From assembly GCA_965224085.1 (NCBI GenBank), contig CBDCYI010000004.1:1-64000 (forward strand): a stretch of 64,000 nucleotides of DNA, in the 5' to 3' direction. Source of the DNA: Candidatus Marinacidobacterales bacterium. GTDB taxonomy: Bacteria > Acidobacteriota > Vicinamibacteria > Marinacidobacterales > SMYC01. The position numbers were made by a program, and so were the translations under genes. How positions within the stretch are numbered: position 1 is the stretch's first letter; the number at the start of each line of letters is the position of its first letter. The notes under the pieces are model-generated. The model had not been told where the DNA came from. It made no database searches and saw nothing but the letters and a program-made list of their open reading frames with translations. This document shows positions 34,911 through 41,219 of the stretch, piece after piece.

Positions 34911-35487
34911 TCGGACTCCTCCTTTTTCGATGCGTTCTTTCGACTGACTTTGGCACATCGATGCCGTCTATGTCAGCGGAGGAGTCCATCCCATCACTTG
35001 ATGGCGGAAGCACCCAGCGAGGAGTCCGCGGTCGCTTTGCTGTTTGGGCTTATCGCCTCTGGCCAGATTCAACTACGACGCATCGACGGCTACCAACGTC
35101 TGAGCGAGGTTCTCGAACACGCGGAGGTTGCCGCCTGATATGATACTCTGATGACGGAGTAGAGGGTGCTGTTCTTTTTCCACGGACCTCGGGACACATC
35201 CCAAAAACTAGGCCCTTTTGAAATAGACCATGAATCAGCAGCTTAGTGTCTGTGTTTGCGCCCGGGCCAAGGGCCTAGCTCTGCTCCATGGTTGTCGCGG
35301 GCCCCACCGTCCACGCTGCATCGACTGTTCGCTTGTAATGTTGCCAGTGAATCAAGTTTTGGCACAGGACGCCGGGGTCCCGGTACGCCGTGGTACCCGC
35401 ACCGATCCGCGTGATATATTCTTGGGTCCGGAAACCGATGCAACGTGTCCACGGAGTTGAGAAAGGCCAAGAACTTGGGAGGTTTCA

Positions 35488-36078
35488 ATGAAAGACAATA
35501 GAATGATTGCCGAGTTGATATCGGAGTTTGTAGCACAGTTGGAGAAGCAGCTGCATGAGCTAAATTCACGAATTACTACTGTTCTTGCTGAGCCGGAGGC
35601 TTCTGAACCGGAGGCTGCCGAGCCAGAGGCTGCCGAGCCAGAGGCTTCTGAGCCAGAGGCTGCTGAGCCGGAGGCTGCTGAACCGGAGGCTGCCGAGCCA
35701 GAGGCTTCTGAGCCAGAGGCTGCTGAGCCGGAGGCTGCTGAACCGGAGGCTTCTGAGCCAGAGGTTGCTGAGCCAGAGGCTGCTGAGCCGGAGGCTGCTG
35801 AGCCGGAGGCTGCTGAGCCGGAGGCTGCTGAGCCGGAGACTTCTGAGCCGGAGGCTGCTGAGCCGGAGGCTGCTGAGCCGGAGGCTGCTGAGCCGGAGGC
35901 TGCTGAGCCGGAGGCTGCTGAGCCGGAGACTTCTGAGCCGGAGGCTGCTGAGCCGGAGACTTCTGAGCCGGAGGCTGCTGAGCCGGAGGCTGCTGAGCCG
36001 GAGACTTCTGAGCCAGAGACTTCTGAGCCAGAGGTAGACGATGGCGATTCGCAATCCCAGGAAGACCGCGCAAAGTAA
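35488..36078 (+). CDS. Short helical leader plus about 30 EPE(A/T/V)(A/S) pentapeptide repeats
   Basis: GGAGG RBS; 15-bp tandem repeats; C-terminus [15 protein letters not shown] identical to the bactofilin tail. Confidence 0.7.
35590..36035 (+). repeat. 15-bp coding tandem repeat (GAGCCRGAGGCTGCT)n
   Basis: Directly visible; about 30 units. Confidence 0.95.
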
Positions 36079-36119
36079 TGGACGGCAATAGAACTGAGAC
36101 AGGGGATAGGCGTTAGTGC

Positions 36120-36701
36120 ATGAAACCTGTGATCCGCAAAAAAGAAGATCGCGTGCCGCCTGGATCGACTTTTTGCGGAGCACAGGAGGTGCCAACGGGC
36201 GAGGGAGATGTTGGCGAACGGGTTGCTACCCTTGAACAGTCCTTCGCCAGCGAGTCGATGATGCACCACTACAACCTATCGACGCGCCACGTGTTCCAGA
36301 CGCGACGCTCGGATATTCGCTCCGAGACGTTGGCTGCGTTGCAGTCCAACATCGAGGTGGCCACCAGCGGGCAAGCGGTGCCGTTACCCGGATTCCCCGA
36401 ATACTTTCTAAGCATCAGGAACACCTGGGTCGGCGCAGTGGGGTGGCTCATCCAGGGACCCGAGCACCGGGTCATGGTTCAGTGCGTGACAGCCTGGACG
36501 ATTGAGGGCGCAGCAAAGGGCGTGCGCTGGTTGGGGGCGGAGCTACCGGAGGAGTTGGACTTGCCTTGTTGTCTGGTCAAGCTTGGACTACCCCTGCTTA
36601 AGGATCCCGGTGCGGCAAGTTGGCTTGATGATGCCGAGCGGTGCATTAGCTGGGCGATGCTACCCACGCCTCCTCTTGGCAATGGCACAGGGTCGCCCTG
36701 A
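36120..36701 (+). pseudogene. Hypothetical protein, paralog of 29633..30268; 5' end replaced by a MITE
   Basis: Homology starts at about 36185, directly after the short MITE at 36128-36184. Confidence 0.6.
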
Positions 36702-37189: not shown

Positions 37190-37900
37190 TGAGGGAATGT
37201 GTGCCACTCTTAGTTGAAATTTGAAACGGCTCCCTCTCGGGTGGTTTGATGACGTTGTCAAAAGCGAAATCAAGCCGCTCAAGAAAGGAGCCGATATGGG
37301 AAGTCTGCTACGAAGGGTCAAGGAACGCAAGAAGACGCGTCGTCTAGGTGAAGTAGAGGTCATGGAGCAAGAGGGATACGGGGAGCTCGAGGTGGACTCG
37401 AAGGTCGAGATGATCCGCGCACTGGTGCCTCTCGGCCTGATGCATGTTCACGAGTTGCTGGACGCCGAGGTCAGTGAGCTTGCGGGAGAGCGATACGTTC
37501 GGAAATCGGAGACGGTGCAGGGACGACGTCACGGGACGAATCCGGGCACGGTGAACTCGCGGGTCAGCGAGTTCCGGTCCGCGGTCCCCGTGTTCGCGGC
37601 CGCGACGGAGAGATCCCGTTGAACTCGTACGAGAGTCTGAGTCACCGCGGAGAGGTGGACGAGTTGCTTCTACGAAGAGTGCTGTACGGGATCTCGTGCC
37701 GGAACTATGAGTCGGCGGCGGAATTGGTTCCGGGCGCGATCGGTCTGTCGAGTTCGTCGGTGTCGCGCGGCTTCGTCGAAGCAAGCGCAGCGAAGCTGCG
37801 TGAGATGCAGGAGCGTGATCTCTCGGGTGAGGACGTGGTGGCGATGGTCCTGTACGGCAAGACGTTCGCCGACGCGACGATGGTGGTGGCTCTCGGCGGT
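37190..37900 (+). pseudogene. IS256-like transposase 5' fragment, frameshifted
   Basis: LLDAEVSELAGERY, GISCRNYE, SSSSVSRGF, ERDLS...DGK-like region; truncated by a mini-IS110. Confidence 0.65.
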
Positions 37901-37909
37901 ACTGTCAAG

Positions 37910-38018
37910 TTTTCCACGGCTTGACGGCCACCCCGAATGAATGAAACGCGTTAGTCTCTGGAGGTGGCACCGGCTCAACACGACGCCTGAGGGAGCTCGG
38001 GTTTGGCGTCACTGCCCC
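37910..38018 (+). mobile_element. Mini-IS110 A, copy 2 (right end truncated)
   Basis: Same internal deletion junction (GGCTCAACACGACGCC) as 29376-29514; preceded by TGTCAAG. Confidence 0.8.
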
Positions 38019-38073
38019 AGAGGTGTGATGAGCTCGTTGCCGAGACCTTGGTGGTTCCGTTCTGCGTGATAGT

Positions 38074-38550
38074 GCTCGGCAACACAGTGCCCACAATCGC
38101 GAGTTTCTTGAACTCCACTATCCTTGGCATCCGCTCCACGGACGTAGGATTCTCGTCCGCGGCCGGCGAAAGTGGGGCAAGCACACAGCCGTTCGCTTCA
38201 CGGTAGAAGACGAACCGCAACGAGTCTGGACCGAACTTCCGGTCTGGATGTTTGACCGTGCCGTCTGTTCACGGATGCGTTTGACTGGCCGACCCCGCGT
38301 TCATTGGAAAGCCTTGGTAGAACTTAGGCAACTGCTGGACGAGACGGTGTGTGCGCCTCCGTTGGCAAGGGTACAAGATCAGCATCGTTGTTCGAACGTA
38401 GAAGGAGGTGCTGATGAAGGCGATACATCGATTTCGTCGAGCGGAGCAACTTCGGTTTTTCGATCGAAACAGAGTTCTCCCCCTGTGGAGCAGTCTTGCG
38501 GAAGACGTCAGGCAAGCGGTAACTCGATTGACGGCGGAGATGCTCCGTGA
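38074..38550 (+). CDS. orfA, lacking a start codon in the integrated state (YPWHPLHG...ELPVWMFD protein)
   Basis: Frame open from the left junction to the stop at 38550; no ATG/GTG/TTG before 38248; in frame with ATG 40784 after circularisation. Confidence 0.65.
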   Translation, partial: ARQHSAHNREFLELHYPWHPLHGRRILVRGRRKWGKHTAVRFTVEDEPQRVWTELPVWMFDRAVCSRMRLTGRPRVHWKALVELRQLLDETVCAPPLARVQDQHRCSNVEGGADEGDTSISSSGATSVFRSKQSSPPVEQSCGRRQASGNSIDGGDAP

Positions 38551-38605
38551 GCACTGGGCAACAAAATCCACGAACGAAGTAGAGAGGAGGACAAAGGATG
38601 AGTGA
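38408..38605 (+). CDS. orfB, small protein overlapping the LSR start
   Basis: AAGGAGG RBS; W..L.E.VRQ.V..L.A.ML pattern; stop overlaps the LSR 5' end. Confidence 0.6.
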   Translation: MLMKAIHRFRRAEQLRFFDRNRVLPLWSSLAEDVRQAVTRLTAEMLREHWATKSTNEVERRTKDE

Positions 38606-40769
38606 GAAGATCAGAAAGCAACACCTCGCACGTAAAGCTGTTCTTTATGTTCGGCAATCCTCCCCCCATCAGGTTGCCCGTAACGAAGAGAGCCGACGGC
38701 TCCAATACGCCATGGAGGACCGACTCAAGGAACTCGGCTGGGAGGAAGTCGAGGTCGTTGACGAGGACCTCGGCCGCTCAGCGGCTGGTGGGACGCACCG
38801 TAGCGGGTTTGAAGGTATGGTGGCCGAAGTGTGCCTAGGCAAAGTCGGTGCGGTAGCCGCCCGGGAAGTATCACGCTTCGCTCGAAACAGTCGGGATTGG
38901 CAGAAGCTGGTGGAAGTGTGTCGAGTGGTCGACACTCTTCTTATCGATCAGGAGACGATCTACGATTCTCGCCGCGGTAACGACAGGTTGCTTCTAGGAT
39001 TGAAAGGCAGTCTCAACGAATACGAGCTCGATATCCTAAGGCTTCGCGCCGTAGAGGCTCGTCACGAGAAGGCGCGACGTGGAGAGTTGGTCGTCATAAG
39101 GTCTGCTGGCTATATCACGACCGACGAAGGCATCGTGAAGGAGCCAGACCGCCGTGTCCAGCGGACCATAGGATTAGTGTTCCAAAAGTTTCTCGAGCTT
39201 GGCTCAGCCCGCCAAACCTTGCTGTGGTTCATCGAGCACGGTTTAGAAATCCCTGTGCGCGAGTATGGCACAACGGGCTGGGAGACCGTATGGAAACGCC
39301 CCACCTACCAGCTGGTAATACGAATTTTGCAGGACCCGATCCACGCGGGCGCCTACACCTACGGCAAGACCGAAGTAACGACTGAGTTTGAGAGTGGAGT
39401 CGCTCGCAAGAAAATCAGGCGAAAACCGAAAGAAGAGTGGCTTGCTTTGCTCTACGATCACCATGAGAGCTATATTGCTCGCGAAGAGTTTGAGCGGATC
39501 CAAGAGATGATCTCAAACAACGCTCAATGGCCGAACGGCCCTGGACCTGGAGCAGCAAAAAAGGGGCGAGCGCTCCTGTCGGGCTTGCTGCGGTGCGGGC
39601 GTTGCGGCCGCAAGCTGATGGTGGTCTACACGGATCCATCTCAAACAACGCTCAATGGCCGAACGGCCCTGGACCTGGAGCAGCAAAAAAGGGGCGAGCG
39701 CTCCTGTCGGGCTTGCTGCGGTGCGGGCGTTGCGGCCGCAAGCTGATGTGTGGTCGGGGAGCGCTGAACAATGCGGAAGCTCGTTGTATCAGTTTCGGAA
39801 GTCAGCCAGTAGACGATGCTGTAGCCGGTGAAGTGCTCCGGGTGATCGAGCCTGGTGCCATAGAGGCAGCGATGCTCGCACAGCGAGAAGTTGCTTGCGA
39901 GCAGGATGACGTCGTCGAAGCGCTGCGTCTGGACCTCGAGGCAGCACGCTACACAGCGGAGCGCTCTTGGAAACAATACGATACCGCTGACCCAGCAAAC
40001 CGCCTGGTGGTTGATGAGCTGGAAAGACGGTGGAATATCGCACTCGAAACATTTCAAGAGCTCGAAGATAGGATCACGCAACAGGAAGCTCAGCGAAAGC
40101 AAGTGGTGGCGCCGGACCTGAAGGTTTTCGAACAGCTAGCCGAAGATCTCGGTCGCGTATGGAGTGATCCAGAGACGGACGTCCGGCTGAAGAAACGCAT
40201 CGTTCGTGCGCTGATTGAAGAGGTGATTGTCGACATCGACCGAACAATCGGTGAAACCTCACTCGTGATTCATTGGAAAGGCGGCACGCACAATGAATTG
40301 CGCGTACCGATTCGTCGCCGCGGGCAAAACAGTCTCCATACGTCAAAGGACATCGTCGATGCGGTACGAACTCTGACGCTGGTTTGTACTGATGATGTCG
40401 TAGCAGCTTACCTGAACCGTAACGGCCTACTCACCGGTCGTGGAAACCGCTGGACCCGAGAGAGAGTTGTTTCCCTTCGAAATAAGCGCGGGATCGCTAA
40501 GTATTCACCCCGACGGCAAGAGGCAGAAGGCTGGATGACCCTAACTCAAGCGGCCGCCTATCTTGGCGTCTCTGGCAGCGCCCTCCGGCACAGGGTCGAA
40601 CGAGGTGAGCTGAAAGCCATGCATCCCGCTGCCTGATGGACCTTGGGTTCTTAATAGGCAACAACTTGATCAACCGGGTGTTCGCAAGGTTATCGAGAGG
40701 ATCCGTCAGAATCGGAACCCCGCATCGCAATCACTCGAACAACGAACCCTTTTTGAAACAACAACATGA
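38598..40769 (+). pseudogene. Large serine recombinase, disrupted by a 111-bp duplication and a 1-nt insertion
   Basis: AVLYVRQSS (catalytic Ser), EVSRFARN, GLLRCGRCG zinc ribbon, coiled coil, C-terminal HTH; duplication 39510-39620/39638-39748; extra C near 40625. Confidence 0.88.
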
Positions 40770-40797
40770 CATGATGAGGCAGTATGAAACGTCATTC

Positions 40798-41125
40798 TAG
40801 TGCACGACGTATTCGGTTACCGCTGTCCGCAGGTGTCCCTCACTGAGAGGTACGAAGCGGTCGAGACACTCTCGACGTATGGAGAGAACGAATCTTTCCG
40901 CGTATGCGTTCAGATTCGGACTATTGGCGGGAAGGCGGAGGGGCTTCACGCCTGAATCTCTCAAGAGCCCACGTACCGCCTCGGTGAATAGTGGGTCCCG
41001 GTCGTGGATGAGGTACTGCTTGCGAAGGAGCAAACCATCCCACATGTCCGTGAGGTTTCTTGCCACCTGCTTCATCCACTTCCCGTTTGGGTCCGAGGTT
41101 ATCCCACCGATGCATACGCAGCGAG
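40798..41125 (-). pseudogene. Integrase-core (rve) transposase fragment; its C-terminus continues at 38010-38074
   Basis: [32 protein letters not shown]. Confidence 0.8.
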
Positions 41126-41219
41126 TGGCGATTTCGATAAGCTGTTGATTTATCGGCTATTTCAAGAGGGCCGAGTTTTGGCACAGGACTGGGTTCAAAC
41201 TGCAACACGACCTGGCACC

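Follow-up and report, generated by a model that had tools for sequence, protein, structure and literature searches.

A large serine recombinase element with its attachment site inside its first gene, orfA, whose predicted ribosome site and start codon lie at the far end of the integrated form

Serine integrases are key tools in genome engineering, and the direction of their reaction is normally set by a separate phage-made factor. The junction promoters of IS911 and IS30 and intP/intX of Mx8 belong to the same background. In Tn4451, joining of the ends makes a promoter for the recombinase TnpX (see the title of Lyras & Rood 2000, cited in PMC13023037), and a passage of PMC3158075 assigns TnpX a 2-bp target. 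In the SSV-type "suicidal" integrases the attachment site lies in an element gene, which is split by integration and is whole only on the circle, an arrangement that a passage of PMC8371274 describes as exclusive to archaea. According to an excerpt of PMC4557955, mycobacteriophage BPs carries attP in a regulatory gene, so that integrated and free forms yield different products, and an excerpt of PMC13023037 describes Pcirc of ICEclc and P3'end of ICEKp1 as end signals that drive the gene at the other end only after circularisation. Here we analyzed an orfA-orfB-recombinase unit in a 64,000-nt stretch of DNA from a Candidatus Marinacidobacterales bacterium (the window; positions 1 to 64,000 of contig CBDCYI010000004.1, C4 in our numbering, in a genome of 6.87 Mb in 12 contigs). 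The best overall explanation, which we consider probable, is that this unit is a large serine recombinase element of approximately 2.6 kb with its attachment site in orfA, and that full-length OrfA is translatable only from the circle.

The unit spans 2.7 kb (38070–40802) and is bracketed by two copies of TAGTG (Table 1). When positions 38075–40802 are deleted in silico, the minus strand reads from ...EYVVH straight into YHAERNHQGLGN. The interrupted gene is of the rve type, although the rve_3 match of the right-flank open reading frame (ORF, 40797–41075) is weak (E 3e-4; 20.9 bits, below the Pfam cut-off of 26.5). Five uninterrupted copies of the approximately 400-bp rve remnant were found elsewhere in the same genome (C9:576538-576692, C9:531141-531282, C5:1888034-1888188, C5:2175811-2175960, and C9:851736-851878), each reading ...GTGA TAGTG CAC..., and one Logan contig jumps from 38069 to 40798, which is the empty-site form. 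Because of the five empty sites, the ends of the element are set without reference to any reading frame, which confirms the original prediction of a TAGTG-bounded unit whose excision restores the EYVVH reading.

The orfA frame is open from the left junction (38071 onwards). Upstream there is an in-frame TGA (38029–38031), after which no ATG, GTG, or TTG occurs before the ATG at 38248, and this ATG cannot be the real orfA start because its Met belongs to a W-M motif that is invariant and sits centrally in the conserved domain. At the opposite end of the element, the sequence reads GAGG (40776–40779), 4 nt, ATG (40784), and four more codons, followed by TAGTG. On either side, the T of TAGTG occupies the third position of its codon; the ends therefore join in frame, and the joined orfA comprises 5 + 159 = 164 amino acids, the first five of which (M-K-R-H-S) are parted from the gene body by integration. 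Both the missing canonical start at the left junction and the in-frame join giving a 164-residue protein had been predicted and were confirmed. The ATG had also been described as lying just after the recombinase stop, and this is truer than claimed: without an extra C present in this copy (see below), the recombinase reads on to the TGA at 40767–40769, so that GAGG starts 7 nt and the ATG 14 nt after the true stop. As read from the DNA, the attachment site lies in codons 5–7 of orfA, the first gene of the element, and by the logic of the sequence an element gene is split by integration and restored on the circle.

To compare this arrangement across the family, we used a homolog set of 160 further genome and metagenome loci, 79 of which had the Tyr motif of OrfA, the recombinase end and enough flank, with 57 remaining after dereplication. 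We took each possible distance, from 51 to 75 nt, separating the conserved Tyr codon from a start-type triplet that follows the recombinase stop, and counted at each the loci with a shared core. At 63 nt, a shared core of at least 4, 5, or 6 nt was found in 35, 27, and 17 of the 57 loci, respectively, versus 5, 2, and 0 loci at the out-of-frame spacing of 62 nt and 2, 0, and 0 loci at 64 nt. Minor peaks at 68, 70, 72, and 73 nt stem from other ATG/GTG triplets in the ribosome-site region, and short cores make core detection noisy. The other true lengths were 57 nt (L096 and L109, with cores of 9 and 7 nt), 60 nt (L028 and L089), and 66 nt (L041), all multiples of 3. Joined in silico, the homologs thus place the ribosome site and ATG consistently in frame with orfA, with 63 nt dominant and 62 and 64 nt near nil. 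Two other core searches were set aside. A longest-common-substring search was noisy, with 6-mers matching by chance about once per locus and 41 of 79 loci ambiguous; its 38 unique loci, which we take as supporting only, included 14 at 79 to 81 nt and had an ATG open to the Tyr codon in frame 0 in 23 cases and in the other frames in 5 and 4. A search allowing every ATG or GTG as a start left 55 of 79 loci ambiguous by design and was dropped.

Lineages with several copies gave boundaries of their own. Five copies with unlike flanks (four in G260 and one in G170), whose OrfA is 31% identical to that of the window, have ends set by flank divergence; they read recombinase stop, AAGGTGG, six bases, ATG, five codons, and core, with the same core in the same codon phase at the left boundary, and the elements of G015 and G208 behave in the same way. 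In a lineage of 7 loci, 10 of 21 pairs gave 79 nt from the recombinase stop to the Tyr codon (4 had alike flanks and 7 gave other values), and in a lineage of 3 loci all 3 pairs did. This distance equals the 63-nt N-terminus, and the minimal overlap of the ends was TA in both lineages. Flank pairs gave no result where the flanks were alike or the right ends differed (the L059, L062, and L089 groups, L088/L165, L096/L109, L031/L035, and L039/window). The layout recurs at 30% to 45% OrfA identity and with different targets (rve, IstB, IS66 TnpB and transposase, and IS91 Y2).

An internal start for orfA is not conserved, since 22 of 32 lineages have no in-frame ATG, GTG, or TTG between the core and the Tyr codon of the YPWHP motif; in the remaining lineages the start-type codon is mostly at a conserved Val at position -2 from the Tyr. 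A Shine-Dalgarno (SD)-like motif precedes the right-end start at the usual distance in 28 of 32 lineages. The predicted position of the crossover inside orfA, with ribosome site and start at the opposite end, is thus supported by the layout of the homologs, by the spacing, and by the lack of a conserved internal start. Altogether, these comparisons establish the boundaries, the in-frame join and, family-wide, a predicted ribosome site and start across the crossover.

Several observations weigh against translation of OrfA from the circle. The circular form itself was not seen: a recombinase stop lies within 140 nt upstream of orfA in 0 of the 160 genome and metagenome loci, a junction-type N-terminus is contiguous with orfA in 0 of the 142 loci with the Tyr motif, and the contigs of four sequencing runs hold the integrated form and the empty site only, with no go-back joint. 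The lineages also share ancestry, and the recombinase constrains the spacing of its attachment site, so that the constant frame counts for less than as many independent trials would. The ATG lies inside a dyad-symmetric arm motif (GGCAGTATG versus CACAGTGCC), and part of the conserved N-terminal block of OrfA is the arm. Start codons supplied by the flank in 14 of the 142 loci could permit some OrfA synthesis from attL. Finally, the window copy and the three other copies in the assembly are all damaged or cut. For the circle junction that the original prediction proposed to look for, the outcome was negative, with no circular or tandem junction among the contigs and loci searched; absence from contigs is not evidence of absence here, because contigs drop rare forms. 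Among the 150 OrfA representatives listed, one (P0093) has a junction-type N-terminus (M-K-R-R-C-T-S...) contiguous with orfA, for which a circular or tandem origin is possible; no collected locus matches it above 86%, and we regard it as a lead only.

The shared ancestry and the arm motif raise the question of whether the right-end ATG is in frame merely as a consequence of attachment-site geometry. Both this triplet and the "N-terminal" block of orfA would then be kept as recombinase-binding arms and the 63-nt spacing would be inherited, with OrfA starting elsewhere or the stretch being untranslated. The attP of the window has the expected dyad, with GGCAGTATG at 12–20 nt on one side and CACAGTGCC at 12–20 nt on the other; in related lineages dyad complementarity is high at positions 1–3, 15, and 19–20, and since all lineages go back to a single ancestor, the conserved frame is partly inherited. 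However, the start triplet is kept far better than its dyad partner. In the 16 lineages with a TTGTA core, which were picked without requiring a start, the triplet 14 nt before TA is ATG in 12 and GTG in 2, so that A-to-G variants remain start codons (one further lineage has an ATG one codon later, in frame), whereas the dyad partner is CAY in 5 of the 16. The length variants were solely those of 57, 60, 63, and 66 nt. Mean entropy at codon positions 1, 2, and 3 was 0.94, 1.56, and 1.82 in codons 2–3, 1.25, 1.15, and 1.67 in codons 8–21, and 1.03, 0.99, and 1.58 in the conserved domain; the third position varies most in both stretches, as in the conserved domain, which shows coding-type sequence variation on both sides of the predicted junction. 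The SD-like motif and the absence of a usable start within the element upstream of YPWHP, each in the lineages counted above, also speak against geometry, and we judge this explanation quite unlikely.

The flank-supplied starts bear on another alternative, that OrfA is also made when the element is integrated, from a non-canonical or flank-supplied start, and that the split has no regulatory meaning. The 14 cases have an in-frame ATG or GTG 57 to 69 nt before the Tyr codon (ten are a GTG at 66 nt), and gene callers see long open upstream frames in many GC-rich hosts. Against this, the window flank has a stop 13 codons ahead of AGT (38071), the first codon borne by the element, and no start after it, and flanks of the IS66 TnpB type have a TGA three codons before the core. 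Moreover, the flank-derived extensions are unrelated in sequence and length, and synthesis from the integrated form would leave the conserved ribosome site and start at the other end without purpose. For the window and for most targets a flank-supplied start is not relevant, and we consider this alternative very unlikely for the family. In the ten loci with GTG at 66 nt, the N-terminal block and core resemble those of rve-targeting lineages. These loci include L095, L118, L123, L124, L138, L141, L172, and L173, and in L124 a hand translation of the flank suggests that the GTG comes from the opposite strand of the Pro-His codons of an rve-type target motif.

The damaged copies concern the recombinase gene. 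The original prediction overlooked two lesions that make it appear as two ORFs in the window (38598–39746 and 39527–40636). In the three other copies of the genome, 26 nt reading as a normal zinc ribbon stand in place of the 112-nt stretch of the first lesion; these copies also have one C fewer at the second, and the recombinase continues through a helix-turn-helix (HTH)-like tail to its TGA. The first lesion is absent from the contigs of runs X1, X19, X20, and X23, all four of which drop one letter at 40625, and Logan contigs of X19, X20, and X23 (two studies) hold 0.87 to 0.88 of the element words without either lesion; a single Logan contig of 2675 nt covers 38058–40819. The homologous locus L039 has a 99% identical OrfA, the same target, and an intact recombinase of 694 amino acids. 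It may therefore be that only this copy carries the lesions of the window, or that they arose in assembly. Each of the other copies in the genome is defective in its own way: C9:857188-859716 lacks 500 bp (window 38388–38887), the left end of C5:2282911-2285613 is foreign and a lesion lies near window 40208–40241, and C9:1-1787 begins at a contig edge. With its recombinase gene damaged in this way, the window copy has probably lost its activity, provided that the lesions do not stem from misassembly. That this copy is a decayed relic, and its join merely a fossil of the family layout, has about an even chance: the two lesions and the state of the other copies in the assembly favour it, the lesion-free contigs and the intact recombinase of L039 count against it, and in either case it concerns the window copy and not the mechanism of the family.

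By its domains and its insertion the enzyme is a large serine recombinase. The Resolvase domain (PF00239) is matched by the window fragment (E 9.7e-18) and by the intact L039 protein (E 9.4e-17), which also matches the Recombinase domain (PF07508, E 1.5e-16) and the zinc ribbon (PF13408, E 2.9e-7) that is interrupted in the window copy. Insertion is precise, with a short core (TAGTG) and five empty sites. R19-Q20-S21 is invariant in 37 recombinase sequences, and from the family motif we take S21 to be the nucleophile serine. The C-terminal HTH-like tail (window approximately 40530–40769) resembles HTH_17 in the window fragment (E 1e-3) and at residues 619–660 of the L035 recombinase (E 1.5e-4), both below the Pfam cut-off. 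The gene lies wholly within the element and is intact while integrated in 61 of 79 loci.

The second gene, orfB, overlaps the 3' part of orfA. All 61 loci with an intact recombinase possess an ORF of this type (56–88 amino acids), which lies in the +1 frame, stops where the recombinase gene starts, and has the common pattern QLxLF...P.W..LP.EVR...LLARLL. Judged by this conservation, orfB is a real conserved gene. In the window (38408–38605) and in L040-L183, its putative ribosome site and start lie inside orfA codons, in a conserved GGAD stretch, and the orfA frame is open for 139 to 177 codons past the Tyr codon in 33 of 36 lineages, across orfB. The overlap possibly reflects dual coding or translational interference.

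OrfA belongs to a large family, with 1178 cluster representatives at E≤1e-3 and confirmed OrfA-family stretches in genomes (470) and metagenomes (519), and with 302 plasmid records. In an alignment of 42 sequences, Y17, H20, P21, P57, W59, M60, and C66 are invariant. The protein is a distant relative of DUF5372 (PF17342) as judged by profile matches: the window OrfA itself gave 12.7 bits (E 0.13; cut-off 25 bits), 6 of the 42 relatives match at E≤0.01 (best 8.1e-6), and the closest Atlas clusters are DUF5372 (score 0.94). We found no paper naming DUF5372 in a literature search whose coverage stopped short of subscription journals and supplementary files, and a search on y4bD/y4pK/y4bA returned unrelated matches only; Y4bD/Y4pK are, we assume, names for DUF5372. 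An AlphaFold model of OrfA (mean pLDDT, predicted local distance difference test, 83) has four strands followed by helices. Compared with the PDB by Foldseek, it gave no match at E≤1e-3, and we assigned no fold, the best pieces being ribosomal S4e-like and Tudor/KOW-like at E 0.17 to 1 only.

Predicted OrfA proteins carry mutually unrelated N-terminal extensions of 0 to 90 amino acids that end at one conserved block, and the near-identical P0092, P0104, P0125, and P0143 are wholly unlike upstream of it. Such divergent N-termini are as expected from one element at different sites with its boundary inside the ORF. Among the 25 plasmid matches listed, 19 have no listed gene under orfA, in a table that omits pseudogenes, so that some may carry a pseudogene label in the original records, and in the Sinorhizobium meliloti (S. 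meliloti) pSymA copy (L199) orfB and the recombinase are annotated and orfA is not. For the most part, orfA is missed by annotation because the chromosomal form offers it no start codon.

To explore whether OrfA could act on the recombinase, we predicted a three-chain complex of recombinase and OrfB with OrfA as partner. The outcome was classed as weak support, with a score of 0.44 (runs 0.44, 0.40, and 0.64), and the best of 3 OrfA contact controls, including one in which the recombinase was replaced, reached 0.01. In calibration, 58 of the 80 solved complexes passed the contact mark, as did 2 of the 110 mismatched pairs; at a score of at most 0.60, it was reached by just 7 of those 80 complexes and by both passing mismatches. 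The runs agree in at least 47% of contacts with a partner pLDDT of at least 60, and since custom alignments were used, the calibration counts are rough. The prediction makes a contact between OrfA and the recombinase somewhat likelier and says nothing about direction. A promoter and terminator scan gave nothing above chance; for sigma-70 it found 1 site versus 1.1 expected and none near the ends, and it may leave host promoter types uncovered.

The mechanism that we propose on these grounds is as follows. Integration would part orfA from its ribosome site and start, which are left at the far right end. Excision would join the ends, so that the recombinase stop is followed by GAGG, the ATG, five codons and then, past the crossover, the remainder of orfA. 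The recombinase transcript would then cross the joint, and ribosomes would start OrfA 14 nt after the recombinase stop, so that full-length OrfA would be made only from the free circle, most simply off the recombinase transcript. A protein that the circle alone produces cannot be what the element needs in order to leave the chromosome, and thus the coherent role for OrfA would be to favour insertion or to block the reverse. OrfA could accordingly be a circle-specific factor acting on the recombinase, one that favours re-insertion or blocks the reverse reaction or orfB, and the always-intact pair of orfB and recombinase would serve the integrated state or excision. In a more far-reaching reading, the family would be a class of three-gene serine-recombinase elements, widespread yet unannotated, that live as parasites of insertion sequences (ISs) and have a built-in means of sensing the physical state they are in. 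Circle-only OrfA would flip the system to insertion, either via the recombinase or via translation over the ribosome site and start of orfB, and orfB would be the candidate excision factor. It builds on the notion that OrfA translation is restricted to the circle because the start is coupled to the recombinase stop and lies on the other side of the crossover, at a distance of five codons. We consider this reading as a whole unlikely; if it were true, OrfA would be an "integration factor" of a logic opposite to that of the known serine-integrase directionality factors.

The targets of the family were analyzed by running Pfam, in ten right flanks, on the ORFs of the opposite strand that extend into the junction. 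IS genes were found in 9 of the 10: rve/rve_3 in L117, L069, and L053, all cut at position 54 of the 67-position rve_3 profile; IstB_IS21 in L035 and L030, cut at position 100–101 of 238; TnpB_IS66 in L094 and L047, cut at position 45 of 101; DDE_Tnp_IS66 in L065; and Y2_Tnp in L042. The right flank of L106 had no Pfam match. From the flank translations, the IstB cut presumably falls in the Walker A codons. The flank translations of the pSymA copy read by eye like an IS66-type transposase, without a Pfam match. In each case examined the element was antisense to its target, and as far as these flanks indicate the family inserts antisense into conserved codons of IS genes.

The coordinates of the features are collected in Table 1. 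The rve target of the window is itself no more than a remnant, bordered by other repeats. A repeat of approximately 57 bp (41138–41194) and one of approximately 119 bp (37900–38018) adjoin it; both occur at dozens of sites, on several contigs and in either orientation, and resemble mobile-element ends or miniature repeats. Upstream of the target, two adjacent ORFs of 133 and 101 amino acids (37221–37924) had no Pfam match at E≤0.01, and they may resemble the N-terminal part of an IS256/Mutator-type transposase. Further upstream, 35352–36269 is long, strongly repetitive, and open in several frames of both strands, with units such as PEAAE and SGSAA.

Table 1. Features of the element and its target in the window.
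Feature	Position	Strand	Remark
Target 3' piece, rve-type transposase remnant, codons ...YHAERNHQGLGN...	38018..38069	-	Contiguous with 40803–41138 in five empty copies
attL core TAGTG	38070..38074	+	Crossover probably at TA; TA is the minimal end overlap in other lineages
orfA body, 159 codons, without its own ribosome site or start; distant DUF5372 relative; invariant YPWHP and P.WM	38071..38550	+	
P' arm motif CACAGTGCC, dyad partner of right-end GGCAGTATG	38083..38091	+	12–20 nt from TA
orfB, 63 amino acids, +1 frame relative to orfA, overlaps the orfA 3' part	38414..38605	+	Its last 8 nt lie in the recombinase gene
Large serine recombinase gene, broken here	38598..40769	+	Intact 694-amino-acid form at L039:6528-8612
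Lesion 1: 112-nt stretch consisting largely of the second copy of a direct repeat (111 nt, spacing 128)	39634..39745	+	Replaces 26 nt of zinc-ribbon coding
Lesion 2: one extra C in a run; false stop at 40634–40636	40626..40628	+	CC in three other copies
GAGG, 4 nt, ATG: proposed orfA ribosome site and start	40776..40786	+	7 nt past TGA 40767–40769
First five orfA codons, M-K-R-H-S	40784..40798	+	Separated by integration
attR core TAGTG	40798..40802	+	Empty sites
Target 5' piece, rve remnant; ORF 40797–41075 ends ...EYVVH	40803..41138	-	ORF, Pfam, repeat copies

The family is large (1178 cluster representatives, with occurrences on hundreds of rhizobial and Burkholderia-group plasmids and in many soil metagenomes), and it suggests another solution to the control of direction, in which placement of the attachment site lets DNA topology decide if a partner protein can be produced. 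Should OrfA bias the reaction, the element would be a natural, compact "insert-only-when-free" module. With conserved codons of IS3/IS481, IS21, IS66, and IS91 genes as its targets, it parasitises other mobile elements, which offers it many safe, mobile landing sites and bears on IS inactivation and on how small elements hitch rides on plasmids. No description of the split-start layout or of IS-gene targeting was found in the literature searched, although subscription journals and supplementary files may hold one. What sets the present case apart is the combination of a bacterial serine-recombinase element, an accessory gene cut five codons from its start, and IS-gene targets.

Compared with the described systems, as far as the excerpts cited above present them, the element shares one trait with each and differs in others. 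Like Tn4451/Tn4453, it is a small large serine recombinase element for which a circular intermediate is proposed and in which joining of the ends would switch on an element gene. In Tn4451, however, the joint is a promoter for the recombinase, whereas here it would complete the coding sequence of an accessory gene by supplying ribosome site, start, and five codons, with the ribosome site and start wholly within the right end; in addition, the recombinase gene is never split here, and the targets are conserved IS-gene codons. As in ICEclc and ICEKp1, a signal at one end would serve a gene at the other end after circularisation; there, it drives transcription of the integrase in large conjugative elements, and here the break lies in the translated region of a non-recombinase gene of a 2.6-kb element. 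With BPs the element shares an attP inside its own gene. In BPs it is the 3' end that is swapped, and translation of the two forms gives one stable and one degraded product, whereas here the 5' end and start are removed and the integrated form should give no product. The SSV-type elements are alike in that integration splits an element gene that is whole only on the circle, which here follows from the logic of the sequence. They belong to archaeal viruses and plasmids, and their tyrosine recombinases split their own gene, whereas here, in bacteria, the recombinase is a serine enzyme whose gene stays whole inside the element, and the gene that is cut, five codons from its start, is a small accessory one.

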